Positions 10,330 through 39,482 of a stretch of DNA of 64,000 bases are shown here, one piece after another. A program made the position numbers and the translations under genes. Source of the DNA: Candidatus Angelobacter sp. (lineage in GTDB: Bacteria > Chloroflexota > Dormibacteria > Aeolococcales > Aeolococcaceae); assembly GCA_035569495.1 (NCBI GenBank), contig DATMMX010000047.1, positions 75,937 through 139,936 on the forward strand. The letters run 5' to 3'. The first letter of the stretch is position 1. Each line of letters begins with the position of its first letter. Under the pieces are notes generated by a model. The model was not told where the DNA came from and did no database searches. It was given only the letters and a program-made list of their open reading frames with translations.

Positions 10330-11160
10330 CTAGCCGGCGCGGTGGTAGAGGAGCGGGTTGATCTCGCTCGCCGCGAGGTCGCCGGGGTGCAGGCCGGGCA
10401 GCCACCGCCCCAGGTCGGCGCGGCGCTCGTCGCTGTCGGCGGGGCCGACGCGCGTGCCGTCGGCGAAGTAGATCACCGTCATCACCTCGCGCATGGCGCC
10501 GGTCTGGTTGCCCGGGGCGCGGTGCACCATCCAGCCGTCGTGGAAGGTCGCGTCGCCGGAGCGGAGGGGGCCGACGGCGGCGATCGGCGCGCCGGTCTCG
10601 GCCAGCTTCTGGGTGAAGTGGGCGTCCGAGTCGTCGGAGATGCGGGTGCCGCGCATGTCGGCGTTGCGGTGCGAGCCGGTGGCGAACTCCATGCCCGCCT
10701 CGACGTCGACCAGCGGCATCCACATGGTGACCGTGTGGTCGGTGTCGAGCGGCCAGTAGTAGCGGTCCTGGTGCCACGGGGTGTGGCCGCCGCCGGGCTC
10801 CTTGAACAGCGCCTGGTCGTGGTAGAGGCGGACGCCGTCGACGCCCATCAGGTCGGCGGCCATCCTGGCGAAGCGGTGGGCGAGCACGAAGCGGGCCACC
10901 GCCGGGTCGCGCAGCCAGATGTTCCAGACCTGCAGGAAGGCCCTGCCGTAGGTGTCGCGCTCCTCCAGGGGGCGGTGCTCCTGGTTGAGGCGGCGCACGG
11001 CGGCGCCGATGTGTTCGCGGTACGCGCTCAGCTCGGACGGGGTGCAGACGCCGGGCACGACCAGGTGGCCGTCGCGGCGGAAGGCGGCCACCTGGGCGGC
11101 ATCCAGGTGATGCTCGCCGGTCAGCGCGGGCAGGGTGGTGGCGTCGAGGGTGCTGCTCAC
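10330..11160 (-). CDS. Phytanoyl-CoA dioxygenase (PhyH) family Fe(II)/2-oxoglutarate oxygenase, paralog 1
   Basis: The HxD facial-triad context is HTPWHQDRYYWPLD, with a distal His (FHDGWMVHRAPGN). The start was chosen at in-frame GTG 11158-11160 (VSSTLD…) preceded by GGAAGGA. The ORF-track N-terminal extension (MGRYSKEYLLFLEG) uses AT-rich codons (tat, agt, tta, ttt) atypical for this genome, so I treat it as non-coding. Confidence 0.7.
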   Translation of the reverse strand: MSSTLDATTLPALTGEHHLDAAQVAAFRRDGHLVVPGVCTPSELSAYREHIGAAVRRLNQEHRPLEERDTYGRAFLQVWNIWLRDPAVARFVLAHRFARMAADLMGVDGVRLYHDQALFKEPGGGHTPWHQDRYYWPLDTDHTVTMWMPLVDVEAGMEFATGSHRNADMRGTRISDDSDAHFTQKLAETGAPIAAVGPLRSGDATFHDGWMVHRAPGNQTGAMREVMTVIYFADGTRVGPADSDERRADLGRWLPGLHPGDLAASEINPLLYHRAG

Positions 11161-11203
11161 TGGTCCTTCCAGAAAAAGTAAGTACTCCTTACTATATCTG
11201 CCC
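11161..11203. promoter_or_regulatory. 43-bp AT-rich divergent control region with perfect inverted repeat AGTAAG-N5-CTTACT
   Basis: The sequence is tggtccttccagaaaaAGTAAGtactcCTTACTatatctgccc. AGTAAG (11177-11182) and CTTACT (11188-11193) are perfect reverse complements. The repeat is embedded in the only AT-rich stretch between the divergently transcribed PhyH1 operon and GH31 gene. Candidate -10 elements are on both strands (TATATC on the plus strand 6 nt before ATG 11204; TATAGT on the minus strand). Confidence 0.5.
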
Positions 11204-14176
11204 ATGAGCTTTCCCGCAACCTGGCAACCTCCCTCCGGCAGCGCACCGCCCGGCGGCGGCGGCGCCCGCGGCGCGGTGCGCGTCACCGAGCTGTCCCCGA
11301 CCTGCCTGCGCGTCGAGCTGACCCCGGCCGGCAACGCGTTCACGGAGGCGGCGACGCTGATGGTCCCGGTGCGGCTGCAGGGACGGCCACTGGAGGCTGG
11401 CGAGGAGGGCGCGGCGCGCCGTGTGTGGCGCTCGTCCTCGGGCGAGGTGGAGGTGGCGGTCGAGATCGGCGGGGCGCGTCCGCCCGGCCCCGGCGACGTC
11501 GAGGTGCGCTGGCGGCACGGTGGCGAGGCCGGCAGCTTCCGCGCCGACGACTCCGACCCCACCAACTTCCGTGGCACGGTCCGCTCCCTCGACGTGGTCG
11601 GCGGCCACAACCTGCCGGCGCTGCCGCCGTCGCTGCTCTCCCGGCGCGGCGCGGTGGTCATCGAGGACCGCAGCGCGCTGCTCGACCCCGGCGACGGCTT
11701 CCCCCGCCCGCGCCCGGTCGAGAACGGCGTCCACGACCTCTACGTCTTCGCCTACGGCCGCGACCACCGCACCGCCCTGCGCGACTGGATCGCCCTGACC
11801 GGTCGTCCCGCGCTGATCCCCCGCTACTGCTTCGGCCTCTGGTGGTCGCGCTATCACCCGCACACGCAGAGCGAATTCCTGGCCATCGTCGACCGCTTCG
11901 CCGCCGAGGGCATGCCCCTCGACGTGCTGGTGGTGGACGTCGACTGGCACCTGCACGGCTGGGAGGGCTACGACTTCGACCCGCGCTGCTTCCCCGACCC
12001 ACCGGCGTTCTTCGCGGCGCTGCGCGAACGGGGCGTCCACACCACCTTCAACGTGCACCCGCGCGGCGCCATCCAGCCGGAGGACAGCCACTACGCCGAG
12101 TGCGTGCAGCGCCTTCCCCCGGGCCGCGTCGAGCCGGGCGCGGGCGTGGGGCTCGACCTGGCCCGCGCCGCGGAGGCGCAGATCGGTGCGGACATGCGCC
12201 GCCCGCTGGAGGACATGGGCGTCGCCTTCTGGTGGACCGACGGCAACCACGCGCACCTCGCCGGCCTCGACCCGCAGATGGCCACCAACCACGCCTTCCA
12301 CGTCGCCGCCGCGCAGCGCCGGGACCGCCGCCCCGTGGTGTTCTCGCGCTACGGCGGCCACGGGTCGCAGCGCCACGGCATCGGCTTCAGCGCCGACACC
12401 CAGAGCCACTGGGAAGTTCTGGCCTACCTTGTCGATTTCACGGCGACCGCCGCCGACGAGGCGTTCGGCACGTGGTCGCACGACGTGGGCGGCTTCTTCG
12501 GGCGGCGGCTCGACGGCGAGCTGCTGCGGCGCTGGATGCAGGCGGCTCTGCTCTGGCCGGTGCTGCGTCTCCACTCCGACACCTTCGGCGAGCGCCTTCC
12601 CTGGGAGTACGACGGCGACGTGCTGGAGGCGGCGCGCACGGTGGCGACGCTGCGCCGGCGGCTGGTGCCGGCGCTGTACAGCCTGGCCCACGAGCTGCAC
12701 CGCACCGGGATGGCGCCGTACCGGCCGATGCACCTCGCCTTCCCCGACTGGGACGGCGCCGCGGAGGTGCGCGGGCAGGCGATGCTCGGCGACGCGCTGC
12801 TGACCGCACCGGTGGTCGAGCCGGCCCGCGAGCCCGGCGGCGTCTCGGTGCGCCGGGTGGTGCTGCCGCCCGGGGAGTGGCACGAGCTCGACGCGTCGCT
12901 GCACGGCGGGCGGCGGCTGCGCGGACCGGCTGTGCTCGACCTCCGCGTCGGGCCGCAGGAGATGCCGCTCTACGGGCGCGCCGGGGGCATCGTGGTGGAG
13001 CAGGACGCGGCGCGGCGCGGGGTCGACGGGCCGCCCGATCCGCTGATGGTCACCGTGTTCCACGGCGCCGACGGGAGCTTCGTGCACTACGACGACGACG
13101 GGATCACCCGGGCGCACGAGCAGGGCGCGGTGGCACTGACGCCGATCGTCTACGACAACGCGGGCGCCACGGTGCGGCTGGGGCCGGTCGAGGGCGACCG
13201 GTCGATGCTGCCCGAGGTGCGGCGCGTGGTGGTGCGGCTGGTCGGCGTCGACGGCGCACCAGGGGGACCGCCCGGCGGTCGCGAAGTTTCTGCCAGTTTC
13301 AACTGGAACCTGGCCGGCGGCTCGATCTCGATCGGCTTCCACGTCGCCGGCGTCGATCCGGCGCGTGAGGCCCAGCTCGACATGGCGGCGCGCATCCGCG
13401 ACGCGGTGCGGGCCGCGGAGGAGCAGGGGGCGGTGATCCAGGCCCGGCTCGACGGTGCGACCACCCCCGCCGGCGCGGCCGAGCGCATCCACGGTGCCCC
13501 CGTCACCGAGCCCGCGCGCAGCGAGGCCCTCATGGCGCTCACACGCGCCGCCGTCCACGTCCTGGTCGAGCACCGCGACGGGCGGCTCACACCGGTGGTC
13601 ACCGTGGCCCAGCCGGACATTCCCGGATACATCGCGGTCGCCGGCCGGCCCGATGCCGTCGACCTCGCACCTGGGCGCAACCACGACCTGCGCCATCACT
13701 CCTGGCCAGTGTCGCTGCGCCTGCTGCACGACGGCAAAACCGTCGCCGAGGTGGGGCGCACCTTGACCCAGGACCTCACCTACCTGCGTCTGCTCAGCGT
13801 CCGCAACGCCGGCGGCGAGTGGCAGCACCTCGGTGCGACGCTTGCACCGCATCCCCTCGACGAGCCGCAGGCGCGGATCGACCTCGAGCCGTTCGCCGGC
13901 GCGCCCATCGAGGTCGCGGCCGCGCTGCGCAGCGAAAGAGATCAGGAGGTGGTGCTGCGCTGCACCGAGAAGCTGGGCCTGCAGCTGCAGGTCAACGGAG
14001 AGGAGGTGGCGCTGCACGCGGAGCAGCACCGCAATCATCGCGACCGCCGCGCGGCCACGGTGCACCTGCGCGCCGGCGACAACACGATCCTGCTGCGCTG
14101 CGACGCGCCGGCGTACGACCACTTCATGGCCGTCCAGGTGAGCGCGCCCCACGGCGTGGAGGTGGTGCGCCCCTAA
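11204..14176 (+). CDS. Glycoside hydrolase family 31 protein (alpha-glucosidase/alpha-xylosidase superfamily), 990 aa
   Basis: The N-terminal beta-sandwich is followed by a (beta/alpha)8 core with GH31-like blocks (GRPALIPRYCFGLWWSRY…, MPLDVLVVDVDWHLHGWEGYDFDP, GVAFWWTDGN). C-terminal beta-domains follow. No signal peptide. Possibly a leaderless mRNA (no SD before ATG). Confidence 0.7.
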   Translation: MSFPATWQPPSGSAPPGGGGARGAVRVTELSPTCLRVELTPAGNAFTEAATLMVPVRLQGRPLEAGEEGAARRVWRSSSGEVEVAVEIGGARPPGPGDVEVRWRHGGEAGSFRADDSDPTNFRGTVRSLDVVGGHNLPALPPSLLSRRGAVVIEDRSALLDPGDGFPRPRPVENGVHDLYVFAYGRDHRTALRDWIALTGRPALIPRYCFGLWWSRYHPHTQSEFLAIVDRFAAEGMPLDVLVVDVDWHLHGWEGYDFDPRCFPDPPAFFAALRERGVHTTFNVHPRGAIQPEDSHYAECVQRLPPGRVEPGAGVGLDLARAAEAQIGADMRRPLEDMGVAFWWTDGNHAHLAGLDPQMATNHAFHVAAAQRRDRRPVVFSRYGGHGSQRHGIGFSADTQSHWEVLAYLVDFTATAADEAFGTWSHDVGGFFGRRLDGELLRRWMQAALLWPVLRLHSDTFGERLPWEYDGDVLEAARTVATLRRRLVPALYSLAHELHRTGMAPYRPMHLAFPDWDGAAEVRGQAMLGDALLTAPVVEPAREPGGVSVRRVVLPPGEWHELDASLHGGRRLRGPAVLDLRVGPQEMPLYGRAGGIVVEQDAARRGVDGPPDPLMVTVFHGADGSFVHYDDDGITRAHEQGAVALTPIVYDNAGATVRLGPVEGDRSMLPEVRRVVVRLVGVDGAPGGPPGGREVSASFNWNLAGGSISIGFHVAGVDPAREAQLDMAARIRDAVRAAEEQGAVIQARLDGATTPAGAAERIHGAPVTEPARSEALMALTRAAVHVLVEHRDGRLTPVVTVAQPDIPGYIAVAGRPDAVDLAPGRNHDLRHHSWPVSLRLLHDGKTVAEVGRTLTQDLTYLRLLSVRNAGGEWQHLGATLAPHPLDEPQARIDLEPFAGAPIEVAAALRSERDQEVVLRCTEKLGLQLQVNGEEVALHAEQHRNHRDRRAATVHLRAGDNTILLRCDAPAYDHFMAVQVSAPHGVEVVRP

Positions 14177-22542: not shown

Positions 22543-25592
<3,050 letters not shown>

Positions 25593-25596
<4 letters not shown>

Positions 25597-27842
25597 CGCC
25601 GCACCCCCACCGGCGCCGGCGGCCGCCGGTCGAGGCGGTAGCGCCGGGGCACGAACGCGGTTGCCCCACCGGCGAGGCGCTTGGGCGCGAGCTGCGCACG
25701 CCCGTCGCCGGACACACCGCCGCGCGAGTAGGCGGCCACCTCGACGTGGTACCGGTCGGCGACGCGCCGCAGGAACGCGTCGCGGATCGCCGCCACCACC
25801 TGGGCGACGCCGCCCGGCCGCGACAGCAGCAGCACGATCACCGCGGCCGCCAGCACCGCCGAGCTGCCCGCCCCGGCGTCGACCAGGTTGGTCGCCAGGG
25901 CCAGGAAGAGCACGCCGAGGAAGGGACCGGCCACCGCGCCGAGCCCGCCGACCACGGTCATGAGGAACAGCTTCTCGCTGAGCTCGGGGGTGAACCCGCC
26001 GCTGCCCGCCCCGCCGATCTGGTACGCGAACACGCCGCCGGCCAGCGCGGCGAGGAAGCCGCTGATCACGAACGCCTGCAGCCGGGCGCGGGTGAGGTTG
26101 ACGCCGAAGGCCTGGGTCGCCTGCTCGTTCTCCCGGCTGGCGATCAGCGCGCGGCCGGTGCGGCTGCGGCGCATCCCGGTCACCGCCACGGCGCAGGCGG
26201 CGGCGATGGCGAGGACCAGGTAGTAGAGGACGCGCTCGTCGCTGCCCTGCAGGCCGAGCACGCTGGGGCGGTCGAGGCTGCTCGGGATCAGCGTCGCGCC
26301 GAGCTTCTGGCCGAAGAGCAGCGACTGGGCCAGCTCGGCGAAGGCCAGGGTGGTGATGGCCAGGTAGAGGCCGCGGATGCGCAGCGCGGGCAGCCCGACG
26401 ATCAGCGCGGTGACCGCTCCCGCCGCCGCGCCGGGGGGGACGGTGAGCCAGAACGGGAGATGTGCGCTGCCCGCCAGCGCCGAGGCCACCCAGGCGCCCA
26501 CCGCGGCGAGGCCGAACTGGCCGAGGCTGATCTGGCCGGCCCAGCCGGAGAGCACCAGCAGGCTGAGGCCGACGATGCCGTAGGTGATCAGCTGCCCCGC
26601 CTCGCCGGTGCCGCCCGGGGAGAGCACCCAGGGCAGGGCGAGCACGGCGACGGCGACGCCGCCGACGGTGAGGCGGCGCATGCGGCGCACGGGGGGCAGG
26701 TCGCGGAGCGCGGGCGGGATGGGGCGGGTCTCCCTGCTGGTCGCCCAGGCGCCCGCCGCGGCGGCGAGGCGGCCGGTGAGCTCCCTGGGCCGGAGCAGCA
26801 GGACGCCGACGATCACCCCGAAGAGCACCAGGTCGCGCACGCCCTGGTCGACGTTGCCCGCGATCACCGCCTGCTGGAGCACCCCGAGCACCACGGCGGC
26901 GAGCGCGGCGAGGGGCAGGCTGTCGAGGCTGGCCACCACGGCGGCGGCGAGGATGGTCACCAGCACCGGCACCGGCACGCCACCGGCGCCGCCGACGCCG
27001 GTGCTCATGCTGTCGAGCACCGCGGCGAGGCCGCTGAGCAGACCGGCGACCGTCCACACCAGCGCCTGCACCCCGACGGGGCCGATGCCCAGGCTGCGGG
27101 CGCGGTCCTCGTTGTCGGCGGCGGCGCGGATGGCCCGGCCCAGGCGGGCGCGGCGCAGGAAGACCACGATCAGGCCGAGGGCGAGCAGGGTGACGCCGAC
27201 GGTGAGCAGCGAGCCGAAGTTGAGCACCACCGCGCTGCCCAGGTGGAGGCTCGCCTGCACCGGCGGGCGGGTGTCGGGCGGGGCGGCGCCGAGGCCGGGG
27301 GTGTCGCCGTCGAACTGCTTGGCGACGAGCTCGGCGGCGTAGGTCAGCACGGTGGCGGCGGCGAGGGTGGCGACGGTGCCGACCAGGCGGCTGGCCCTGG
27401 CCAGCGGCCGCATCAGCCCGAAGTAGAGGACGAGGGCGAGCAGCGGCGCGAGCAGGATCGTGCCCACCGCGGCCAGCCCGTACTCGGTGGCCGCGGCGCC
27501 GCTCGACGCCGGGCAGCCGTCGCAGCCGAGGCCCAGGCCGCGGAGAATGGCGTGGTGCCGGACGATCTCGCCGAAGAGCACGGCGGTGATCGCGCCGACC
27601 TGCACCTGGGCGAGGTTGACCACCCGGCTGCTGCGGTAGACGAGCACCACGCCCATCGCCTGCAGGGCCAGGCTGCAGCCGGCGACCACGCCGAAGCCGA
27701 GCACGGCCGTCCGCTGCGTGGCGGTGGCCATGACCATGATGAACAGCACGGCGAGCACAGCCGTCGACACCACGGTGGTGCGCTGCAGCAGAGCCCCGGC
27801 CTGACGGCGCCGCGACGTCCACACGGCGGTCACGCGAGCCAC
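25593..27842 (-). CDS. Fused LivH/LivM-type branched-chain-amino-acid (HAAT family) ABC transporter permease (749 aa)
   Basis: GTG start. The N-terminal half is LivH-like and the C-terminal half LivM-like, both polytopic with the conserved permease loop (…RENEQATQAFGVNLTRARLQAFVISGFLAALAGG…). Confidence 0.8.
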
Positions 27843-27998
27843 TTCCCTGGCACGTGCGCTGGTCCTCCATCCGCCGCGCTTCTCTTCCCCGGCCCGCCTT
27901 CGGCCACGCTCGGCCGCGCCCCAACCACGCTATTCTCCGCGCCCGTATATGATTTCGTCAATATTACTGCCTAATTGTGCGGCGACAAGGAGACGGAC
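27843..27998. promoter_or_regulatory. Divergent intergenic control region containing conserved motif ATTGACGAAAT (minus-strand orientation) and GGAG RBS of the GH31-GH13 gene
   Basis: An AT-rich island ccgtatatGATTTCGTCAATattactgcctaattg lies in otherwise GC-rich DNA. The reverse complement ATTGACGAAATCATATAC contains a -35-like TTGACG for the minus-strand Liv/MoxR operon. The same 11-mer recurs at ~51662-51672. Confidence 0.45.
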
Positions 27999-30900
27999 GT
28001 GTCGATCCCCGGTGCACTGGCTGACGGCTCGCTGGTCACCGTCCCGCCCACCTGGCGACCCGCGCAGCCGCTGAGCCTGCCGTCCCCCCTCGACGGCGCG
28101 ACCCTCAGCACGGGCACGGGTGACGCCGTCCCGCTCGACATCCGTGCCGTGGGGGAGGGTGTGCACGCCATCGAGGGAACGTCCGCCGGCGCGCAATCCC
28201 TGCGCCTGGATCTTCCCTGCGGAGCTCTGGACGCGTTCGCGGGTGGCGGCGCCCAATTCGTGTCCATGAATCTGCGCGGGCGGGTGCTCGACGGCTGGCT
28301 CACCGACGCGGCCAGCGGGCAGACCTACTTCCACGCGCCGGTGCTGTACTCGTCGGCGGGGTGGGCGCTGGTGGTCGACACCGTGCTGCGCTATTCGATC
28401 GACTGCGCCGCGGCGTCCGCATCGGTCGTGTCGGTGACCGTTCCGGCGCCGTCCCTGCGGGCGTTCCTGATTGTCGGGACGCCGCGTCACTGCCTGTCGG
28501 TGGTGACCGAGATGACCGGGCGGGCGCCACTGCCGCCGCCGTGGGCGTTCGGGGTGTGGCACAACGTGCGCTCGGGCCCTGCGGCGGTGATGGAACAGGC
28601 GTCGCGGTTGCGCGCCGAGCGAATCCCGGCGAGCGCGCTGTGGATCGACGACCACTACTGCGCGGAGCACAACGACGGCGACGGGTTTCCAGGCAACTAC
28701 CGGCTGGCGCGGTACGGCTCGGTGCCGGAGATGCGCGCCCTGGTGGATTCCGTGCACGGGATGGGTTTCAAGGCGCTGTCGTACCTGAACTGCATGGTGT
28801 ACCGGGATACGCCGTGGTTCGCGGATGCGGTCCGGCGGGGGCTGGTGGTGCGCGACGCATCGGGGGCGCCGCTGCTGATCCCGTTCTTCAACCCGCTGCA
28901 CGCGCGCTCGGGGATCGTGGACTTCGAGGAGGACGCGGCGGCGATCCTCGACTTCAGCAATCCGCTGACGGTGGCGGCGTGGCAGGACAACGTGCGCGCG
29001 CTGCTCACCGGGGTGGGCTGGGATGGGTGGATGGAGGACTTCGGCGAGCAGCTGCCCGCATCAGCGGTCCTGCATGACGGCAGTTCCGGCGCGGATGCGC
29101 ACAACCGCTATGCGCTGCTGTACCACGGCGCGACGGCGTCGGTGCGCGCCGCTGCGAAGCCCGATGCGGTGGTGTTCGCCCGCTCGGGGTATCTCGGCTC
29201 GCAGGCGCTGCTGCCCGCCTACTGGGGCGGTGACCAGCTCTGCGAGTGGAGCGGCGAGTTCGGCATCGGCAGCGTCCTGCCTGCAGGGTTGTCCGCGGGC
29301 CTGATCGGTGTGAGCACGTGGGGGTGCGACATCTCGGGGCTGTTCGCCATGCCCGAGAAGCCGCTGTCGACGGGCGCGGGCGATCGGGAGCTGTGGATGC
29401 GCTGGGTCCAGCTCGGCGCGCTGACGCCGGTGATGCGCACCCACCTCGGCTTCAAGCCGTCGCCCACGCCGCCGCTCGACCTCTGGCACGACGAGGAGAT
29501 GACGGCGCACTTCCGCAGGTTCGCGGAGTTCCACGTGCGGCTGTTCCCGTACCTCGACACGTGCGCGCGAGAGAACGTGGCGACGGGCGTGCCGATCATG
29601 CGCGCCATGCTGCTGCAGTTCCCCGACGACCCGGTGTGCTGGACGCTGGGCGACCAGTACATGCTGGGGCCGTCGCTGCTGGTGGCGCCCGTGCTCTCGC
29701 GTGGTGCGCGCACTCGGCGCGTGTACGTGCCGGCGGGGGAGTGGCTGGAGCTGGGCACGGCTGTCGTGCACGCCGGGCCCGGGTGGGTCACCGTGGACGC
29801 GCCGCTCGACCGTGTCCCCATCCTGCAGCGGGCCGGCACGATGGTGCCGATGCTGGCAGAAACTCCGGAGACCCTGGCCGAGCCGCGCTTTGCATCGGGC
29901 GGGTACGACGTTGAGCTGCTGGTGGCGCCGGTTCCCGGCGCGGGGTCGGAGGCCGTGCTGGGCGACGGGACGCGGCTCTCGCTGGCGGGCGCGTCGCTGA
30001 CCGTGGACGGTCCCGAGCGCACCTACGTGGTGAAGGCGAACGGGGCCTTCATGGGCCTGGCACGCGGGACGGCGCTGGACTTCGAGCTGTCGCCGGCGGT
30101 GCGGCTCGCCTCGGCGGGAGTGCTCGACCCCGCTGAGCGGTCGGCGGCGTTGCAGAGTGCCCGTGCCGATGAGTCGGCGCAGGGAGTGCACCACGACGAG
30201 GCCATCTCTCCGGAGCCGCCGCGACCGGGAGTTGCAACCGTGGTGCGGGCGCGCGCCGCCGCTGGGCTCGGTGTTGCTGCCGGGTTCGTCCATTACACGA
30301 CGGACGGGTCCTCGCCGGAAGAGGCCTCGGAGACGCGCGCGACGGTCCGCATGCAGCCCGTCGCCGGTGGTTCGTGGGAGGCGTCGATCCCGCCGCAGCC
30401 CGAGGACGCCGTGCTGCGCTACGCCATCGAGATGCGTGACGCGCAGGGCGCGCCGCTATGGGCCGAGGACGCCGGCCCCGGCCTGGAACACCCCGATCCC
30501 GACGTGCCCTTCGTCCGTCCCGCCGCGCGCGTCTTCCGCCACGTCGTGCAGCGGCCGCGGGTGCCGTCGTGGATCGGCGAGGCGACCGTGTACCACCTGC
30601 TGGTCGACCGCTTCGCCCGCGACGACGGCTCCGCGGTCGCGCCCCCCGACGGCGTGCGCTTCCTGCAATTCGCCGGTGGCACGCTGCGCGGCATCACCTC
30701 GCGCCTCGACCGACTCGCCGCCCTCGGCGTCGACTGCCTGCTGCTGTCGCCGATCACGCCGGGCGAGATGCACGTCACCTACGACGTCAAGGACCTGGTC
30801 GCCGTCGACCCGCGCTTCGGCACCCTCGACGACGTGCGCACGCTGCTCGGCGAGGCGCACGCGCGTGGCATCCGCGTGCTGCTCGACACCGAGACCTCGT

Positions 30901-31949
30901 ACCTCGGCGTGCGCCATCCCGCCGCGGTGTCGGCGCGCACCGACCCGTCCAGTCCCCATCGCTCCTGGTTCCACTGGCACCACTGGCCGGACCGCTGGTA
31001 CAGCTGGTTCAGCGGTCGCATCTTCATGGGCGTCGACCACACCAACCCCGACGCGCGCCGCGCCCTGCTCGACGCCGCCCGCTTCTGGATCGACCTCGGC
31101 TTCGACGGCTACCGTCTCGACTCCGCCGCGGCCACACCGTTCGAGTTCTGGTCGGAGTTCGGCGAGGTGGTGCGCCGGGCCAACCCCGACGCCGTCACCC
31201 TCGCCGAGGCCTTCGGCGACGCGAGCTTCGTCCGCCACTACCGCGGCCGCCTCTCCGGCGTCCTCGACTTCCACGTCTCTCACCTGCTCCGCCAGTGCTT
31301 CGCCACGTGCGACGAGCCGCTCGCCGCTCTCGACGCCGTGATGCGCACCCGCGCCACCGAGACGGCCGAGGAGGACGGCGAGCTGGTTCGAGCCATCTTC
31401 GTCGAGAACCACGACATGCCCCGCTTCTCCCGCCTCGCCGGCGAGGACGACCGGCGCCTGCTGTTGGCGCTGACCGCCCTGCTGACACTGGGGCCGCCGC
31501 CGATCCTCTACTACGGCAGCGAGGTCGGCCTGCGGCAGGGCGCGCGTCTCGGCATCGACCCTGATGCGCGGCTGCCCATGCTATGGGACTCGTCGCAGGA
31601 CGCTGCGCTGCTCGACCGCGTGCGCGCCCTGGTGCACCTCCGTCGCGACCTGCCCGCACTGCGGCGGGGTGTCTGGCGCTCGCTGCTAGCGTCCGACCAT
31701 GCGATGGCCTACCTGCGCGACGCGGGCGGTCTGGATCGCGCGGTCGTGGTGCTGCGGCGAGACGGCACGGCGGCGGGCATCGACGTTCCGCTCGGCGACG
31801 TGTGGGCTGACGGCACCCGCGTGCGCGACGTGTTGGGCGTTGCCGCGGACACCGTCGTGCGCGGGAGCACCACGCGCATCACGCTCCCGCCGTGGAGCGC
31901 CGCGGTGCTCGTCAGGTCCGATCAGGGAGCCGCGAACGCCGGCCGGTAG
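27999..31949 (+). CDS. Bifunctional-architecture glycosidase: N-terminal GH31 domain fused to C-terminal GH13 (alpha-amylase family) domain (~1316 aa)
   Basis: GTG 27999 with GGAG 7 nt upstream (ORF track starts at TTG 27975). The GH31 blocks are LWIDDHY… and GVGWDGWMEDFGEQLP (acid/base region; compare YicI FKTDFGE). The C-terminal domain is GH13 (GVDCLLLSPIT, GIRVLLDTE, GFDGYRLDSAAA = region II with nucleophile Asp, LAEAFGD = region III, FVENHDMPRF = region IV). No signal peptide. Confidence 0.7.
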   Translation: MSIPGALADGSLVTVPPTWRPAQPLSLPSPLDGATLSTGTGDAVPLDIRAVGEGVHAIEGTSAGAQSLRLDLPCGALDAFAGGGAQFVSMNLRGRVLDGWLTDAASGQTYFHAPVLYSSAGWALVVDTVLRYSIDCAAASASVVSVTVPAPSLRAFLIVGTPRHCLSVVTEMTGRAPLPPPWAFGVWHNVRSGPAAVMEQASRLRAERIPASALWIDDHYCAEHNDGDGFPGNYRLARYGSVPEMRALVDSVHGMGFKALSYLNCMVYRDTPWFADAVRRGLVVRDASGAPLLIPFFNPLHARSGIVDFEEDAAAILDFSNPLTVAAWQDNVRALLTGVGWDGWMEDFGEQLPASAVLHDGSSGADAHNRYALLYHGATASVRAAAKPDAVVFARSGYLGSQALLPAYWGGDQLCEWSGEFGIGSVLPAGLSAGLIGVSTWGCDISGLFAMPEKPLSTGAGDRELWMRWVQLGALTPVMRTHLGFKPSPTPPLDLWHDEEMTAHFRRFAEFHVRLFPYLDTCARENVATGVPIMRAMLLQFPDDPVCWTLGDQYMLGPSLLVAPVLSRGARTRRVYVPAGEWLELGTAVVHAGPGWVTVDAPLDRVPILQRAGTMVPMLAETPETLAEPRFASGGYDVELLVAPVPGAGSEAVLGDGTRLSLAGASLTVDGPERTYVVKANGAFMGLARGTALDFELSPAVRLASAGVLDPAERSAALQSARADESAQGVHHDEAISPEPPRPGVATVVRARAAAGLGVAAGFVHYTTDGSSPEEASETRATVRMQPVAGGSWEASIPPQPEDAVLRYAIEMRDAQGAPLWAEDAGPGLEHPDPDVPFVRPAARVFRHVVQRPRVPSWIGEATVYHLLVDRFARDDGSAVAPPDGVRFLQFAGGTLRGITSRLDRLAALGVDCLLLSPITPGEMHVTYDVKDLVAVDPRFGTLDDVRTLLGEAHARGIRVLLDTETSYLGVRHPAAVSARTDPSSPHRSWFHWHHWPDRWYSWFSGRIFMGVDHTNPDARRALLDAARFWIDLGFDGYRLDSAAATPFEFWSEFGEVVRRANPDAVTLAEAFGDASFVRHYRGRLSGVLDFHVSHLLRQCFATCDEPLAALDAVMRTRATETAEEDGELVRAIFVENHDMPRFSRLAGEDDRRLLLALTALLTLGPPPILYYGSEVGLRQGARLGIDPDARLPMLWDSSQDAALLDRVRALVHLRRDLPALRRGVWRSLLASDHAMAYLRDAGGLDRAVVVLRRDGTAAGIDVPLGDVWADGTRVRDVLGVAADTVVRGSTTRITLPPWSAAVLVRSDQGAANAGR

Positions 31950-32764: not shown

Positions 32765-33507
32765 CCGGCGTCCTCCGCGAATCCCACGGACCAGATGGCG
32801 CCGTCGCGCGCCAGGTGCGACACAGCTGCGGGAACGTCGTCCTCCAGCAATGCGGCGGACAGTCGGTCGACGTCGCAGATGAGGCCGAGGCGCACCGGGC
32901 CGAGACCAGCCTCGACCTGGCCGACCAGCGCGGCGGCGTCGCGTCGCGGCGGCCGCGTGGCGCCGTCGAGGTGGTCGAGCGAGGTGAGCAAGACGATGCG
33001 CCCGGCATCGATGCGGGCCAGCAGCGTCGCGGCGCAGTTGTCGCCGTCGTAGAGGGCGAGCAGGGCCCACGCGCCATCGGCGCGGCGCAGGATCTCGGGC
33101 AGGGCACGCCACGGATTCGCGGGCGGCGCGGGCGCGGTGGCGATGGCGGGCGACGACCAGAAGCGATCGGCGTTGTCCCAGAAGACCTCGAGCTGGGTGC
33201 GTTCGGCGAAGCGAATGCGCGCCAGCTCACCGGCCAGCTCGTCGCTGCGGGTGCGGTCGTAGAGCACCACCCGGTCGGCGCCCGTGGCGGCGAGCAATTC
33301 CGCGGCGCGCTCCCGGGCATCCTCGAACGGCTCGCGGTGCGTGGCGAGCGCCCCATCGCGCGAGCTCACCACATGGACCACGCGTCCGGCGTCGTGCAAC
33401 ACCGAGACGACCTGCGCACCGCGCCGCTGCCGCGTCTCGGCCAGCGCGCAGATCACCCCGAAGCCCACCGGCTCCAGGTCGCAGATGACGACGTCGGTGG
33501 CGATCAC
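32761..33507 (-). CDS. Hypothetical protein (248 aa), no recognised domain
   Basis: GTG start (VIATDVVICDLEPVGFGVICALAETRQ…) overlaps the TGA of the GH35 gene (GTGA). Normal amino-acid composition; only the C-terminal third of ORF 32761..34770 is believable. Confidence 0.45.
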   Translation of the reverse strand: MIATDVVICDLEPVGFGVICALAETRQRRGAQVVSVLHDAGRVVHVVSSRDGALATHREPFEDARERAAELLAATGADRVVLYDRTRSDELAGELARIRFAERTQLEVFWDNADRFWSSPAIATAPAPPANPWRALPEILRRADGAWALLALYDGDNCAATLLARIDAGRIVLLTSLDHLDGATRPPRRDAAALVGQVEAGLGPVRLGLICDVDRLSAALLEDDVPAAVSHLARDGAIWSVGFAEDAG

Positions 33508-35447
33508 CGCGACACCGTCCAGACCTGCGCACCCCAGGCGGGCATGGTCACGGTCAGCGCCGGATGCGCAACCCCGCCTCCCACGGCGTCGTTCCAGCGC
33601 GAGGCCAGCTCCGCGGGTGCGGCGGCCGTGATGGTCGCCACGCACGGCTCGCCCGAGTGGTTGAACGCCGCCAGCACCTCGCCTCGCGGACCGCTCCAGT
33701 GCCGCAGCCGCACCGGCCCCTCGCTCACGGTGAAAGGTGGGCGCGGCAGCAACGGCTGCAACGCATCGGGGTCCTCCAGCACAGTGATGCCCTCGGCATC
33801 GAAGCCGTGCGGTCGCAGCGCGCCGTCGAGCACGGGCAGTTGCGGCCCGACGAACACCGACGCGCCCTTGCTCGCCGCCTCCCGGAGTCGCTCCCACGCC
33901 GCCGCGTCGGCGACCTCCGCGGCCGGCATCACGATGCACGCGTACCTGGACAGGTCCGGCAGCGCCGACGACGAGGCGTGATCGTGGTCGACGCTGTTGC
34001 GGTCGAGAACGGCACGAACCGCCGCGTCGAAGCTGCGCACGGCGGCGTCGTCGGCGTGGGGGAGACGGGTGAGCTGGAAATCGAACGGCATCTGCGCCGA
34101 GAACGCCGGTACCAGGCCGCCGAGAGTGGCCCGGGCCTCGCGCCGCAGCGTCTGCTCGCGGTTCTCCACCAGCAGCACGGGCGCGGTGCGCTCCATGGCA
34201 TCCAGCCCAACTTCCTCGCGCAGCCCCATCACCCGCCTGAGCAGCCCACCGAACTCGGCGCGGACGTTGCCGTGGCGGTCGACAGGACTGCCGTACCAGC
34301 GATCCCGCTCGACGGTCATGAAGAAGTTGCAGGCGCGTGCACCGGTGAGCAGCGCCACCAGCCAGACCAGCTCGGCGTCGGCGGGCCCGACCCGCATCGG
34401 CAGCAGCCAGGGCATGGCCAGCCAGCCCGCGCCCATCTCGGCCATCCACGGCAGCCGCGATCCCGCGGCGATGTGGCGCGCGATGTCGGCGACGAATCCC
34501 GCGCCGGGCCGCGCTGCGTATACGTCGATGGCGGCGACGTCGACGGCGTCGCTCCGCTCCAGCGCAACCGAGTCGAGCGGCGTGTCCAGGCGGGGGAAGT
34601 CGTTGTGAAAGGTGGGAACGCGGTCGAGTCCGCGATCGCACAGCCCGTCGCGCAGGCGCCGCAGCGTGATGCGCAGCGCCTCCTCGCGCCAGCGCAGCCA
34701 GTCGAGGCGGCGCACCTCGGGCTCGTCGCCGGCGTCGCGTGGGGGATCGACGTCCTCCAGCCCGTCCCACGCGGTGCCGTACAGCGCGTTGACGGCGTCG
34801 AGCGCGCCGTGGCGCCGCACCAGCCAGTCGCGGTAGGCGTCGAGCGTCTGCGGGTGATAGTCGAGCGCGTACGGGTGGGACTGGAAGAAGTAGCCGTGCT
34901 CGTTGTCCACCTGCACGGCGACGATGGGGCCGTCAGGATGCTGCAGCGGGGCGAGCTGCGCGACCACGCTGTCGTACCAGCGGTCCACGGCGGCGAGGAA
35001 GTGGTCGGAGAAGTAGGACGGCACGCGGATGTGATGCGTCGCGGTCGGCAGCGTGTAGGGGACGCCGTTGCAGCGCAGGGCCTGAAGCCGGGCGTCGCTG
35101 ACGACGCGCATCGGCAGGCCGCTGTCGAGCAGCTCGGCACCCTGGTGCGGACCGGGGCGCACCACCGCATATAGACCGCGCTCCTGGACCATGCGCAGGA
35201 AGCGCGCCACGTCGAGGTTGCCGGTGAAGTCGGGCGGGTCGTCGCCGCGGTCGTGCACCGACCAGGGGACGTAGGTGTCGACGCTGGTCAGGCCCAACGA
35301 GGCGACGGCGTCGAGGATGCGCGGCCAGTCGGCGGGGTCGTGGCGCCAGTGGTGGACGGCGCCGCTGAACATCGGCAGGATGCGGCCGTCGCTGAGGCGC
35401 AGTCCGCGGTCGGTGACCGTGACGGTGCGCACGGCGGTGTCGATCAT
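33504..35447 (-). CDS. Glycoside hydrolase family 35 beta-galactosidase-like protein
   Basis: ATG (MIDTAVRTVTVTDRGLRLSDGRILPMFSGAVHHWRHDPADWPRILDAVASLGLTSVDTYVPWSVHDRGDDPPDFTGNLDVARFLRMVQERGLYAVVRPGPH…) overlaps the SBP stop (ATGA). The conserved GH35 acid/base block is VQVDNEHGYF (compare IQVENEYG). Confidence 0.7.
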   Translation of the reverse strand: MIDTAVRTVTVTDRGLRLSDGRILPMFSGAVHHWRHDPADWPRILDAVASLGLTSVDTYVPWSVHDRGDDPPDFTGNLDVARFLRMVQERGLYAVVRPGPHQGAELLDSGLPMRVVSDARLQALRCNGVPYTLPTATHHIRVPSYFSDHFLAAVDRWYDSVVAQLAPLQHPDGPIVAVQVDNEHGYFFQSHPYALDYHPQTLDAYRDWLVRRHGALDAVNALYGTAWDGLEDVDPPRDAGDEPEVRRLDWLRWREEALRITLRRLRDGLCDRGLDRVPTFHNDFPRLDTPLDSVALERSDAVDVAAIDVYAARPGAGFVADIARHIAAGSRLPWMAEMGAGWLAMPWLLPMRVGPADAELVWLVALLTGARACNFFMTVERDRWYGSPVDRHGNVRAEFGGLLRRVMGLREEVGLDAMERTAPVLLVENREQTLRREARATLGGLVPAFSAQMPFDFQLTRLPHADDAAVRSFDAAVRAVLDRNSVDHDHASSSALPDLSRYACIVMPAAEVADAAAWERLREAASKGASVFVGPQLPVLDGALRPHGFDAEGITVLEDPDALQPLLPRPPFTVSEGPVRLRHWSGPRGEVLAAFNHSGEPCVATITAAAPAELASRWNDAVGGGVAHPALTVTMPAWGAQVWTVSR

Positions 35448-37165
35448 GCTTCGCAGGAGCCGCTGAAGTAGGGGTAGCCGGCGGGCACGGTGGCGTCGGT
35501 GACTCGGCGGCCGTGGTTCACATAGCACCACACTCCCTGCTGTCCCCACGGCCCAGTCGTGGTCGCCGAATACCACACCATGGCGCGGTCTTTCATGAAG
35601 GTGTAGTCGGTGTCGAAGCCGACGGTGCCTTCGAAGTAGGCACTCGGCGGGTTGGGGAAGTGCGTCTTCCACAGCCCGGCCTGGAAGGTCTGCGGTGTGA
35701 GGTGCGGTCCGGCCATCTGCAGCCCGGAGACCAGCATCAGCTCCATCTCGTAGCCGAACCAGCCGTTGTAGCTGGCGGGCGCGTATGGCCACGGGTAGCT
35801 GGGATCCTCCTGCATCACGGCCCAGTACCACGGGTTGTTGGGCGCGGCCACCAGCTTGTTCTCGTAGTCGAAGCCGAAGGCGTGATTCCACTGGTCGGAC
35901 GGCTGCAGGCCCGAGCCCCACCCGGTGTTGTACGAGAAGTAGCCCATCATCCACTCGGGGTGGTAGCCGGCGGTGTCCGCCTGCTGCAGCACCTGCAAGG
36001 TGCTGGCGGCGTGGCTGATGAAGAGCACGGTGGTGATGCCGTCGGTGTCGAGCTGGGCGACGGCCTGCTGCGCCTGCTGCGTGGACGTGCTGCTGCGGTT
36101 CTGGTAACCGACGCCCGACGATGCCGGGACGTAGTCCACCCCCAGGGTGTCCTTGGGCGCAATCGTGATGCCGCAGGCGGTGAGGTCATCGAGCAGATAG
36201 TGGAGGTCGATGGAGGCCGAGTCCGGGTAGCTGGTGTAGACGATCCCGAATTTCCGCTTCCCTTGCAGCACGGTGGGGGCGGCGTACGCCGGAGGCGGCT
36301 GGTCGCGCAGCCTGCACGCCTGGGCGGCCATGTTGTGCTCGTCCACGTCGTACGGTGGGTAGTAGTTCCACTCGTACGGCGCGGCGCGCTGGTAGTCGGC
36401 CGAGCTGCGCAGGTCGGGGCGGGCGGTCACCGAGACGATCCGATTGCGCGCCAGCTCGTCGAAGAAGTACTTCTCGCGTCCGCCGGCGTCCGGGCAGCCG
36501 AGCACCGCGAACACGTTCGCCTCGGCGGCGACGGTGTCGGCCCTCTGCACCATGGTGGCCTGCGGGCTGTCGCTGTCGCCCCCGCACTTGACTGGGACCA
36601 GCTCGATCTGCCGCCCGTAGAGCTGGAAGCGGTCGTTGAAGAACTTGTTCCACAGGTCGGTTGCGTTCTGCCCCTCGCCGAGACCGATGCGAATCGTGTT
36701 GGCGTCGACGCCCTTCCAGGTGCTGCCGCCGTTGTCGCCCTTCCAGTACGGCACGCACGGTGGCGACTGCGTGTCCTCGATCTGCCGCGGTCCGCCCGGG
36801 CCGTCCACGCAGTCGAGCGTGCGCGGCACCGAGGTGCCGCCCTGGTTGCTGGCGGCGCCGAGACCATTGGAGTTCGCGAGCGGCGTCGGCGTCGGCGCCG
36901 GGGTCGGCGTGGCGCTGCCCCCGCCTGCCTCGCCGTTGCCGTTCTGGTTGGCGCCCTTCCCGGCGGTGCTCGCCTGGTCGGGCGGCGGCTTGGTGATGTT
37001 CTGCTGGGCGACGGGCGCGAAGGCGGCGACCGGGGGCAGCGGGGGACGCGGCGGGTGCAGTGCGGGCAGCAGGGCGAGCACGAGCAGCGCGCTCAGCCCC
37101 GCGTAGGTCAGCCCGAGGCGCCGCCCACCACGGCGGGAGCGGCTTGCGCCGGCGACGGTGGCCAC
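35444..37165 (-). CDS. Secreted periplasmic-binding-protein type I (Leu/Ile/Val-binding-like) substrate-binding protein, 573 aa
   Basis: GTG start with GGAGG RBS. The signal/TM is LGLTYAGLSALLVLALLPAL. A long P/T/G-rich linker precedes a type-I PBP-like core (…RIGLGEGQNATDLWNKFFNDRFQLYGRQIELVPVKCGGDSDSPQATMVQRADTVAAEANVFAVLGCPD…). No cognate ABC permease/ATPase in this operon. Confidence 0.5.
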   Translation of the reverse strand: MATVAGASRSRRGGRRLGLTYAGLSALLVLALLPALHPPRPPLPPVAAFAPVAQQNITKPPPDQASTAGKGANQNGNGEAGGGSATPTPAPTPTPLANSNGLGAASNQGGTSVPRTLDCVDGPGGPRQIEDTQSPPCVPYWKGDNGGSTWKGVDANTIRIGLGEGQNATDLWNKFFNDRFQLYGRQIELVPVKCGGDSDSPQATMVQRADTVAAEANVFAVLGCPDAGGREKYFFDELARNRIVSVTARPDLRSSADYQRAAPYEWNYYPPYDVDEHNMAAQACRLRDQPPPAYAAPTVLQGKRKFGIVYTSYPDSASIDLHYLLDDLTACGITIAPKDTLGVDYVPASSGVGYQNRSSTSTQQAQQAVAQLDTDGITTVLFISHAASTLQVLQQADTAGYHPEWMMGYFSYNTGWGSGLQPSDQWNHAFGFDYENKLVAAPNNPWYWAVMQEDPSYPWPYAPASYNGWFGYEMELMLVSGLQMAGPHLTPQTFQAGLWKTHFPNPPSAYFEGTVGFDTDYTFMKDRAMVWYSATTTGPWGQQGVWCYVNHGRRVTDATVPAGYPYFSGSCEA

Positions 37166-37259
37166 GCTCTTTCGGCCTCCAACCAGGATGTGCTACGAAT
37201 TAGGAAGAGATATTACCAAATTGCCTCGGCGGAGGCCCGCCGTGTCCAGGGAGGCCACC
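37166..37259. promoter_or_regulatory. Divergent intergenic region (SBP/GH35 operon versus GH31 gene) with AT-rich core
   Basis: gatgtgctacgaattaggaagagatattaccaaattgcc is the only AT-rich segment for kilobases. RBSs are on both flanks (GGAGG for the minus gene, GGGAGG for plus ATG 37260). Confidence 0.4.
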
Positions 37260-39482
37260 ATGGCAGACGACCCAGCCCTCGGCACCCTTGCGCCGGCCGC
37301 CGAGTTCAGCTGCGAGACGCCCCGGCCCGCCAAGGCGCCCCTCTCCGCGCTGGACGAGCCCGTGCCCCTCTTCGCCCAGCCCGAGCGCAGCTTCGCCACG
37401 GCGGCTCGCATCGCGGGGATCGAGCCCGCGCCCGGCGGAGCGCGTGTGGCCGTGTACACCGATGGCGGGCAGGCCGCCGAGCTCCTGGTGCAGCGCACGG
37501 TCTCCGGTGCGCTGCGGCTGCGATGGTCGTTTCCGCCGGGTGCGGCAGGAACCGTCCGCGACGGCGACGGCATGCTCGCCGGCGGCGCCGAGCCCGATCC
37601 CTCCGCGGCCGCCGAACGAGATGCCTGCGGCGGCCTCACCCTCAGCGCACCCGCGTGGCGCTTCGTGCTCGACGCCGGCATGTCGTGGCGGCTGGAGCGT
37701 CCCGATGGCTCGCTGCTCACCCGCCAGCGCCGCGACGACCGCGCCTTCCCGCACTGGATGAGCCGCCCGCTCGGCACCTCCGGCGGCCCGGCGCTGCGCA
37801 CCTGGTCGCACGAATCTCTGCTCCTGGACCCCGACGAGCGCTTCTACGGCCTCGGCCAGCAGTACGGCGGCCTCGACAAGCGCGGCACTCGCCTGGTGCA
37901 GCACAACCGCGACGCTCTCGGCTCCAACGGCACCCTGCTCACGTACCACAACACGCCGTTCTGCTGGAGCAGCGCGGGTTACGGCGTGGTGGTGCACGCC
38001 GCCGGTCGCGTGATGTGGGAGATCGGCAGCCCGTCGTTCGAAACGCTCACCGTCGCCGCGGCGGGCGACGTGCTGGACGTCTTCCTGCTCGCCGCCGACA
38101 CACCGCAGACGCTGCTCGACTCCTTCTACGCGCTGGCCGGTCCGCCCGGCACCGTGCCCGACTGGGCGCTGGGCATCTGGATGTCGCGCTGCCAGTACCG
38201 CAGCCGCGACGAGGTCACCGACGTGGCGCGGCGGCTCGACGCCATGCGGTTCCCCTACGACGTGCTCCACCTCGACCCGCGCTGGATGCGCCCGCGACGC
38301 GCGGCCGACAACGACCACGGCGCTGACTTCACCTGGGACGACGAGCAGTTCGGCGACCCGCGCGCCTTCTTCGCCTGGGCGCGCGACGAGGCGCGAGTTC
38401 GTGTCAGTCTGTGGGAAAACCCGTACGCCCTGGCCGGTTCGTGGACGCACGCCGAGCTGGCCGGCATCGACGGCCTCGCCCTGCTCCCCGACGGCACGCC
38501 CGCAGCGCCGTTCGAATCGCCCAGCGGCCAGTCGTTCGTCGTCGACCTCACCGACGACGGTGTCCGCCGCTGGTGGACGGCGCAGCACCACCGCCTCCTC
38601 GACCTCGGCGCCGCCGCCTTCAAGACCGACTTCGCCGAGGGCGTCCCCGACGGCGCGCTCTTCGCCGACGGACGCAGCGGCGCCGACATCCACAACCTCT
38701 ACGCGCTGCTCTTCAACCGCCTGGTCTGCGACGCCGTCGCCGGCAGGGGAGAGGCGCCCTTCGTCTACGGCCGCTCAGGCTGGCTGGGCTCGCACCGCCA
38801 CCCGCTGCAGTGGTCCGGCGACGCGCAGTGCACCTGGAGCGACATGCGCGGCGCGCTGCGCGCCGGTCTCAGCGCGGCGCTCTCCGGCACCGCGTACTGG
38901 GCATCCGACATCGGCGGCTTCTACACCCTCGACGAGCCGCTGCCCGACGGCGAGCTGTACGCGCGCTGGACCTGGCTCGGCTGCCTGTCGCCGATCGCCC
39001 GCTTCCACGGCACCAGCCCCCGCGAGCCGTACGTGTACGCACCCGAGGTCGGCGACGCGGCGCTCACCGCGGCGCGGCTGCGCTACGCACTGATGCCGTA
39101 TCTCGCTGCGCAGTCGCGACGCGCCGCAACCGGACTGCCGCTGATGCGCCCGCTGCTGCTCGCATTTCCCGACGACCCGCTGTGCTGGCGCGACGCGTCG
39201 TCGTTCCTGCTCGGCGACGACCTGCTGGTGGCCCCCGTCCTCCATGCCGGCGGCGCCAGGCGTGTGCACCTGCCTCGCGGTCGCTGGGGCGACTGGTGGA
39301 CCGGCGAGGTGGTCGAGGGTCCGATCGACGTCGACGTGGCGGTGCCGCTCGACCGCGTTCCGCTCTACCAGCGCGAGGGCACCACGGTGCCGCTCGGCCG
39401 CGGTCTCCGCGTCGAGGAGGTGCTCGCCGGGCCGGTGCGCCACAAGCCGTGGGACAGCCCGTACCTGGACGAGTCCGCCTAG
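37260..39482 (+). CDS. Glycoside hydrolase family 31 protein (YicI/alpha-xylosidase-like), 740 aa
   Basis: ATG with GGGAGG RBS. The acid/base block is AAFKTDFAEGVP (YicI-type FKTDFGE). The nucleophile-region is VLHLDPRWM. C-terminal beta-sandwich domains are present. No signal peptide. Confidence 0.75.
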   Translation: MADDPALGTLAPAAEFSCETPRPAKAPLSALDEPVPLFAQPERSFATAARIAGIEPAPGGARVAVYTDGGQAAELLVQRTVSGALRLRWSFPPGAAGTVRDGDGMLAGGAEPDPSAAAERDACGGLTLSAPAWRFVLDAGMSWRLERPDGSLLTRQRRDDRAFPHWMSRPLGTSGGPALRTWSHESLLLDPDERFYGLGQQYGGLDKRGTRLVQHNRDALGSNGTLLTYHNTPFCWSSAGYGVVVHAAGRVMWEIGSPSFETLTVAAAGDVLDVFLLAADTPQTLLDSFYALAGPPGTVPDWALGIWMSRCQYRSRDEVTDVARRLDAMRFPYDVLHLDPRWMRPRRAADNDHGADFTWDDEQFGDPRAFFAWARDEARVRVSLWENPYALAGSWTHAELAGIDGLALLPDGTPAAPFESPSGQSFVVDLTDDGVRRWWTAQHHRLLDLGAAAFKTDFAEGVPDGALFADGRSGADIHNLYALLFNRLVCDAVAGRGEAPFVYGRSGWLGSHRHPLQWSGDAQCTWSDMRGALRAGLSAALSGTAYWASDIGGFYTLDEPLPDGELYARWTWLGCLSPIARFHGTSPREPYVYAPEVGDAALTAARLRYALMPYLAAQSRRAATGLPLMRPLLLAFPDDPLCWRDASSFLLGDDLLVAPVLHAGGARRVHLPRGRWGDWWTGEVVEGPIDVDVAVPLDRVPLYQREGTTVPLGRGLRVEEVLAGPVRHKPWDSPYLDESA

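Follow-up and report, generated by a model that had tools for sequence, protein, structure and literature searches.

A recurrent AT-rich 11-mer as the probable −35 core of two independent promoters in a GC-rich bacterial contig

When the same AT-rich word recurs upstream of two operons in GC-rich DNA, does it mark the binding site of a regulator common to both, or is it a part of two promoters that stand on their own? The question is raised by ATTGACGAAAT, an 11-mer that a preliminary description had placed upstream of two minus-strand operons of the window (the whole stretch of 64,000 nucleotides analysed here, from a GC-rich soil bacterium of an uncultured lineage).

The shared word and the extent of the similarity

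The 11-mer, which reads ATTTCGTCAAT on the plus strand, is present in exactly two copies in the 64-kb window, and both are intergenic, lie on the minus strand and directly precede minus-strand operons.

27952-27962, minus strand: first copy of ATTGACGAAAT (site 1), from reading of the sequence and pattern search
51662-51672, minus strand: second copy of ATTGACGAAAT (site 2), from reading of the sequence and pattern search

These positions bear out the earlier ones, and the AT-rich islands in which the copies were said to lie are equally real, with a G+C content of 41% at site 1 and 33% at site 2 as compared with 72.6% for the window (~72% in the preliminary description). The word is made up of the hexamer TTGACG with one base upstream and four downstream. 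A pattern search of the window at up to one mismatch finds no third copy (0.04 matches are expected from dinucleotide shuffles), and at up to two mismatches it finds four further matches, all of them within coding regions. In a motif-anchored, ungapped comparison of the two sites, the 11 identical positions are followed by 4 matches in the next 6 (15/17 overall), whereas the flanks of this 17-nt block match at 10/40 and 11/44 positions, which is background (∼25%). As flank identity is at background, the similarity amounts to a 17-nt block and not to a longer repeat; of the extended similarity proposed earlier, the 15/17 block stands, and the trailing ‘..TA.AC’ fits only after a shift of one base. 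A repeat or mobile element (REP, MITE or duplicated segment) was considered and rejected, as the similarity is limited to 17 nt and both loci are syntenic in relatives.

Chance recurrence had been judged unlikely, and this holds for one way of weighing the word. A shared 11-mer of any composition is expected among the 14 non-coding gaps of the window (P ∼0.8), whereas on weighting by composition ATTGACGAAAT is the most surprising word common to the intergenic regions (P ∼0.005–0.007, a value that holds in shuffles within 15–30-nt blocks, with the local AT islands preserved, and that applies to a finding picked out because of the coincidence itself). Among the 11-mers of the window with at most three G/C bases, it alone recurs; three other, AT-poor 11-mers recur within genes. 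The recurrence of ATTGACGAAAT is real and nominally unusual. That two AT-rich words match purely by chance, with no function at either site, is highly improbable: shared 11-mers are indeed expected among intergenic regions of such composition, and the three AT-poor words recur within genes by chance, but the composition-weighted P is ∼0.005 and each site is conserved against a diverged background, with a matching −10 hexamer at a fixed distance in the orthologs.

The probable promoter between the LivHM and GH31-GH13 genes

The reading that we favour, at a probability of about 0.7, is that the 11-mer has at its core the −35 hexamer of two independent, conserved promoters of the sigma-70/sigma-A type. 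Both would be housekeeping promoters that fire leftwards on the minus strand. At each site, a −35 hexamer close to TTGACA is followed at 16–19 nt by a −10 hexamer with A2 and T6, the pair lies upstream of a gene and faces it, and the boxes and their spacing are conserved while the spacer drifts. The sites resemble the sigma-70/sigma-A promoters of E. coli and high-GC Gram-positives (TTGACA, 16–18 nt, TATAAT) in the 5/6 match of the −35, the spacers of 17 and 18 nt, the A2 and T6 of the −10 and the location in AT-rich islands of GC-rich DNA just upstream of operons; they are unlike them in their weak −10 matches (GAGAAT 4/6, TAGCTT 3/6), and the consensus of the host, which belongs to an uncultured lineage, may differ. 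From the sequences themselves, the way they lie with respect to genes and the degree to which orthologous loci keep them, all of which are observed directly, we infer that RNA polymerase starts at both sites, that a GntR-family protein binds a palindrome at site 2 (see below), and that the extra identity of the two sites is without a common function.

Gene calls were made from third-position G+C, with annotation by Pfam and NCBIfam. Site 1 lies in a gap of 156 bp between two divergent genes.

25593-27842, minus strand: fused LivH/LivM permease gene (LivHM), first in its operon (Pfam BPD_transp_2 twice)
27932-27937, minus strand: −10 hexamer GAGAAT, 18 nt after the −35, 4/6 versus TATAAT (consensus scan and orthologs)
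27956-27961, minus strand: −35 hexamer TTGACG of the LivHM/MoxR operon promoter, 5/6 versus TTGACA (consensus scan and orthologs)
27999-31949, plus strand: gene of a GH31+GH13 fusion glycosidase of 1316 aa, divergent from LivHM (Pfam, NCBIfam)
27948-27965, plus strand: TATGAT (27948-27953), TTCGTC and AATATT (27960-27965), with −10-like hexamers in the GH31 sense (conservation only)

The leftward operon runs from LivH/LivM through an MFS-ABC ATPase fusion (1017 aa), MoxR and DUF58 to a TgpA-like transglutaminase. Its first gene starts at GTG 27842 or GTG 27833, the latter being implied by the public gene call (746 aa), and the leader from the site-1 promoter to the LivHM start is ∼90 nt. The GH31-GH13 gene, which did not figure in the preliminary description, starts at GTG 27999 with a ribosome-binding site, AAGGAG, at 27987-27992; site 1 sits 37 nt upstream of it. 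Promoter 1 would thus comprise TTGACG, 18 nt and GAGAAT, would drive the LivHM-MFS/ABC-MoxR-DUF58-TgpA operon from a leader of this length, and would stand back to back with the start region of the divergent GH31-GH13 gene.

Two features of these gene sets may be recorded alongside. The 1017-aa protein (22543-25596, minus strand) carries an MFS_1 domain joined to two ABC ATPase domains (LivG/LivF-like), and the fusion is kept downstream of LivHM in three related loci (L130, L131 and L133; 1021–1027 aa); for a Liv-type operon that runs on into MoxR/DUF58/TgpA, such an architecture is unusual. To the other side lies a glycosidase-rich stretch, with the GH31+GH13 gene (27999-31949, plus strand), a second GH31 gene (37188-39482, plus strand) and a gene for a GH35/GH42-like enzyme (33504-35531, minus strand) interspersed with genes for PhyH dioxygenases and a 573-aa Liv-type binding protein.

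In a scan with the sigma-70 consensus, which was defined in E. coli and may not be that of the host, the site-1 pair scores 9/12, a score reached by none of the shuffles. The −10 at 27.9 kb had earlier been called less clear; in fact GAGAAT is readily identified 18 nt downstream, and both hexamers and their spacing are kept in all of the lineages aligned. The alignment covers seven lineages, from metagenomic loci, with LivHM identities of 100, 90, 77, 76, 71, 69 and 53%, and GH31-GH13 is divergent from LivHM in all seven, down to the 53% lineage. The stretches that stand out most clearly as invariant in all seven are TTGAC and A.AAT, with the −10 reading GAGAAT, GAGAAT, CAGAAT, CACAAT, GAGAAT, GAGAAT and CAGAAT ([G/C]A[G/C]AAT). 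The distance between the hexamers is exactly 18 nt in 7/7 lineages, 12 of the 18 spacer bases vary, and the intergenic DNA outside the promoter elements has diverged. As far as the alignment can tell, this pattern is the footprint expected of a promoter. LivHM homologs at 35–43% identity (L049-L057) have unrelated upstream regions, in which the motif is absent.

Conservation at site 1 extends beyond the −35. All six lineages with LivHM identities of 69% or more share TTGACGAAAT without change, as they do TTGACGAAATC, for which the 53% lineage reads TTGACTAACTG; GAAATC stays fixed in the six against a drifting remainder of the spacer, and position 1 of the 11-mer is variable (A, A, A, C, G, A, A). 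An extra constraint thus exists at site 1, and sigma region 4 should not need GAAATC. When the block is read towards GH31-GH13, TATGAT is kept in five of the seven lineages, and the hexamer that follows GTC is AATATT in four lineages and AAGAAT, AACATT and AATAAT in the others, that is AAnAnT in 7/7 with A2 and T6 fixed. On this conservation, TATGAT-TTCGTC-AATATT could provide putative −10 elements for GH31-GH13. A compact back-to-back promoter for that gene would explain why conservation reaches past the leftward −35, a bound factor being the alternative; as a rightward −35 is not recognisable for GH31-GH13 at site 1, such a promoter stays hypothetical. The arrangement is like that of compact divergent promoter regions in that one 18-nt block would hold both the leftward −35 and the rightward −10-like hexamers, and unlike them in that a −35 cannot be recognised for the rightward promoter, the use of which is deduced from the conservation of AAnAnT alone. 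An upstream open reading frame beginning at ATGATTTCGTCAATATT (M-I-S-S-I-), where one public gene call in L130 starts, was also considered and rejected, since CCG replaces ATG in L048/L006 and both the length and the frame with respect to GH31 differ among lineages.

The plus strand may be read in this way at both sites, with nATnAT-TTCGTCAAT as a −10 (TATGAT at site 1, GATAAT at site 2) and start region that would serve GH31-GH13 at site 1 and, at site 2, give a transcript antisense to the GntR gene. We consider this quite improbable as the explanation of the shared word. TATGAT, kept in five of the seven lineages, matches TATAAT at 5/6, as does GATAAT at site 2 (GATATT in the ortholog L002), and the GH31 gene needs a promoter somewhere within its 156-bp gap. 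However, neither site has a plus-strand −35 at 16–18 nt, L048/L006 has GCCGAT in place of TATGAT, nothing comparable is present in L003/L128, and the nearest 1 kb at site 2 holds no plus-strand gene, whereas on the minus strand each lineage has, at either site, the two hexamers properly spaced together with a gene.

The probable promoter of the acyl-CoA/Liv operon and its spacer palindrome

Site 2 lies in a gap of 105 bp between two minus-strand genes, one for a GntR/FCD regulator and the other for a 317-aa protein.

50678-51631, minus strand: gene of a 317-aa orphan protein, first of its operon, ATG at 51631
51643-51648, minus strand: −10 hexamer TAGCTT, 17 nt after the −35 and 11 nt before the ATG (read from the sequence)
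51644-51660, no strand assigned: imperfect palindrome ATCTAACTGATTTAGCT (TAACTGATTTA) in the spacer, overlapping the −10, 6/8 arm pairs matching
51666-51671, minus strand: −35 hexamer TTGACG of the 317-aa/acyl-CoA/Liv operon promoter, 5/6 versus TTGACA (orthologs)
51673-51735, minus strand: two hairpins between the GntR stop codon and the −35 (−35.3 kcal/mol, z = −2.4)
51737-52474, minus strand: gene of a GntR-family regulator with an FCD domain (FadR subfamily; Pfam GntR and FCD)

The 317-aa gene is followed by genes for an acyl-CoA dehydrogenase, a class III CoA-transferase, CMD, a LivJ-like binding protein and an ABC ATPase, and the operon continues with a LivHM-G fusion, two FAA hydrolases, PhyH and a second CMD. 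The 317-aa protein has no sequence match in Pfam, NCBIfam or PDB and belongs to a rare, uncharacterised family, with 20 homologs among 5.8 billion proteins, whose genes usually adjoin a GntR/FCD gene. The two operons had been called unrelated, but they are not entirely so: both contain Liv-type ABC transporter genes.

The layout given earlier for 51.6 kb, namely a −35 of TTGACG, a 17-bp spacer, TAGCTT and a very short leader (11 nt to the ATG), is confirmed. The consensus scan passes over site 2 because TAGCTT matches TATAAT at only 3/6 positions, with A2 and T6 present. The orthologous loci that were compared are L002 (73%), L003 and L128 (∼45%), L134 and L135, and in all five TTGAC[G/T/A] stands upstream of the 317-aa ortholog, with a −10-like hexamer 16–18 nt from the −35 (TAGCTT, TAAGCT, CAGCTT or TAGAAT). 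L002 reads ATTGACTAAAATATCTAACTGATTTAGCTTTCTCACCCG, in which the 11-mer has become ATTGACTAAAA (two substitutions versus the window), the following 27 nt are identical to the window and ATTGAC.AAA.TATCTAACTGATTTAGCTTTCTCACCCG is kept. L003 and L128 have TTGACG-TTAACTCAGTTAACTTCT-TAAGCT with an 18-nt spacer and the ATG 9–10 nt later, L134 has CCCATTGACA-17-CAGCTT, with TTGACA as its −35, and L135 has TTGACG-16-TAGAAT. The bases of the 11-mer beyond the hexamer are not kept at site 2, L003, L128 and L135 retaining TTGACG only, and the bases that correspond to GAAATC are TAAAAT in L002 and GTTAAC in L003 and L128.

The ATG follows the −10 by 9–11 nt in the window, L002, L003 and L128, so that the short leader is conserved, and site 2 has no Shine-Dalgarno sequence. 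In both respects the site resembles the leaderless or very short-leader mRNAs of Actinobacteria, Deinococcus and archaea, although its distance is a few nt longer than the usual 6–8 nt from the −10 to a +1 that is the A of the ATG; judged by this spacing, a leader of 2–5 nt is equally possible as a leaderless start. Promoter 2 would accordingly consist of TTGACG, 17 nt and TAGCTT and give an almost leaderless transcript of the 317-aa/acyl-CoA dehydrogenase/CoA-transferase/Liv operon, and the palindrome in its spacer would be the putative operator of the adjacent GntR/FCD repressor.

The GntR/FCD protein, of 245 aa, shows weak NanR/LldR/PdhR similarity, below curated cut-offs, and its gene neighbours the 317-aa gene in L001, L002, L003, L128 and L135. 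FadR-subfamily GntR proteins bind dyad-symmetric sites as dimers, the textbook arrangement of their operator being GT-Nx-AC. The spacer palindrome is 100% identical in L002, and a perfect 7-1-7 dyad, GTTAACT-C-AGTTAAC, occupies the equivalent place in L003 (3966-3980) and L128 (about 711-725). Its core, TAACTSAKTTA, is unique in the window, and site 1 has no counterpart of it. Symmetry, position and conservation make the palindrome a likely candidate for the operator of the adjacent regulator. As with the FadR-subfamily repressors PdhR, LldR and FadR, a GntR+FCD gene adjoins the operon and the palindrome lies between the −35 and −10 of that operon; the differences are that the palindrome is distinct from the 11-mer, that its core is TAAC-N3-GTTA as opposed to GT-Nx-AC, and that it is a predicted operator. 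The two hairpins that separate the GntR gene from promoter 2 have no U tract, and L002 conserves the arms at 51690-51707. Their probable role is that of a terminator of the GntR gene, of a type common in high-GC genomes, or of an insulator, which is consistent with separation from promoter 2.

The 11-mer itself had been suggested as a regulator site, for example for the GntR protein, that coordinates both operons. As the operator of the adjacent GntR/FCD regulator (51737-52474), through which this protein would control the catabolic and the distant Liv/MoxR operons, the 11-mer is extremely improbable. The regulator gene does lie upstream of site 2, across the 105-bp gap, and is a conserved neighbour of the 317-aa gene. 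The 11-mer has no dyad, though, which sets it apart from the sites of FadR-subfamily dimers and makes the palindrome the better operator candidate, only 5 nt away, fully identical in L002 and a perfect 7-1-7 in L003/L128; this palindrome does not recur at site 1 or elsewhere in the window. Nor is the 11-mer conserved with the regulator: the GntR gene is retained in L002, L003, L128 and L135, yet the word carries two changes in L002 and is reduced to TTGACG in L003, L128 and L135. The suggestion of a site that coordinates both operons thus finds no support, given the missing dyad, the lack of a third copy in the window and the related loci, the absence of the palindrome at site 1 and, at site 2, the lower conservation of the 11-mer than of the adjoining palindrome (two substitutions, then 27 identical nucleotides, in L002).

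Identity beyond the hexamer and further observations

One point against two independent promoters is that the identity beyond the hexamer (five adjacent bases and four of the next six) exceeds the prediction from composition, at P ∼0.005. With independent promoters, it would reflect local constraint at site 1, and an A/T-rich spacer start together with coincidence at site 2. The alternative is a shared trans-acting factor, other than the neighbouring GntR protein, that would recognise ∼13 nt (TTGACGAAATYAT) overlapping both −35 hexamers and co-regulate two Liv-containing operons, either as a repressor that occludes the −35 or as a class-II-type activator. Such a factor is unlikely, and we leave it a modest probability because the residual identity is statistically odd and subject to local constraint at site 1. 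Once composition is corrected for, the 15/17 identity stands out as unusual (P ∼0.005, for a finding selected for the coincidence), TTGACNAAANNAT occurs in the window at these two places only, GAAATC beside the −35 is invariant in six site-1 lineages with the rest of the spacer drifting, L002 still fits TTGAC-N-AAA-NN-AT, and Liv-type ABC transporter genes are present in both operons.

Against this, the motif lacks the symmetry of a dyad or direct repeat: the best dyad in the 11-mer has 3-bp arms (ATT-N5-AAT), an inverted-repeat search finds nothing at the motif, and neither this search nor inspection finds a second half-site near either copy. Apart from the orthologous sites, there are two copies only, the remainder of the 64-kb window and related loci of ∼100 kb being free of the word. 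The constraint is also unequal: the closest ortholog of site 2 differs at two positions, and the ∼45% site-2 and the 53% site-1 orthologs have lost the motif though both promoters persist; at site 1, the −10-like hexamers in the GH31 sense are another candidate cause of conservation. The motif of a regulon would be constrained at the same positions at every site, and here GAAATC is kept at site 1, where site 2 has TAAAAT or GTTAAC. No consensus among those of FNR (TTGAT-N4-ATCAA), CRP/GlxR, Zur/Fur-type 7-1-7, CodY, E. coli Lrp and LiuR-type regulators is known to fit both sites in sequence as well as spacing. In a full-text literature search, TTGACGAAAT and ATTTCGTCAA turned up in primers and unrelated sequences only, and an Rfam scan of the whole window gave no family at gathering score, and thus no known leader RNA or riboswitch.

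In its most specific form, the proposal would make TTGACGAAATYAT a composite −35/operator, bound by a factor that couples the Liv/MoxR operon, and perhaps GH31-GH13, to the acyl-CoA/Liv operon; this too is doubtful, and a variant of it would be a lineage-specific extension of −35 recognition by RNA polymerase. A survey of other TTGACN promoters in related loci yielded only about ten, too small a set for rules that hold across the lineage, and in these the sequences after the −35 vary. A shared factor, if there were one, would tie ABC transport of the amino-acid type to an unknown acyl-CoA pathway, a matter of local interest.

With two independent promoters as the preferred reading, the finding is an ordinary one. 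It suggests that housekeeping promoters of this lineage follow the classical TTGACN/−10 layout, with one transcript nearly leaderless. The practical value is small: for a lineage that is known through metagenomes alone, it consists in two footprinted promoters and a single candidate GntR operator; the layout can help the annotation of operons and start codons in such metagenome-assembled genomes, and it reveals no new regulatory principle.

Other candidate regulatory sites were encountered in the course of the analysis. At 55874-55920, between a TetR-family gene (55252-55860, minus strand) and the gene of an Old Yellow Enzyme-type oxidoreductase, lies a 16-nt inverted repeat, TGTTGACAGCGCTCAC / GTGAGCACCGTCAACA, with 14/16 complementary positions and a TTGAC in each arm; it is likely a TetR operator, here putative, that overlaps divergent −35 boxes. 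An AT-rich palindrome, AGTAAGTACTCCTTACT, at 11178-11195 in the gap of the divergent genes 10330-11205 (minus strand) and 11204-14176 (plus strand) is a possible operator. In the related locus L004 (8071-8123), downstream of the GH31-GH13 ortholog, facing TTGAC boxes surround the palindrome TGGACTAA-CC-TTAGTCCA, which looks like a further divergent promoter with an operator. Finally, the labels attached to this lineage conflict: an identical 317-aa protein is filed by NCBI under Candidatus Angelobacter (Acidobacteriota), and, among loci of species representatives, those nearest to the window carry the names Candidatus Dormiibacterota and uncultured Actinomycetes. The Acidobacteriota assignment seems doubtful for DNA of 72.6% G+C, and the lineage is probably Dormibacterota-like.
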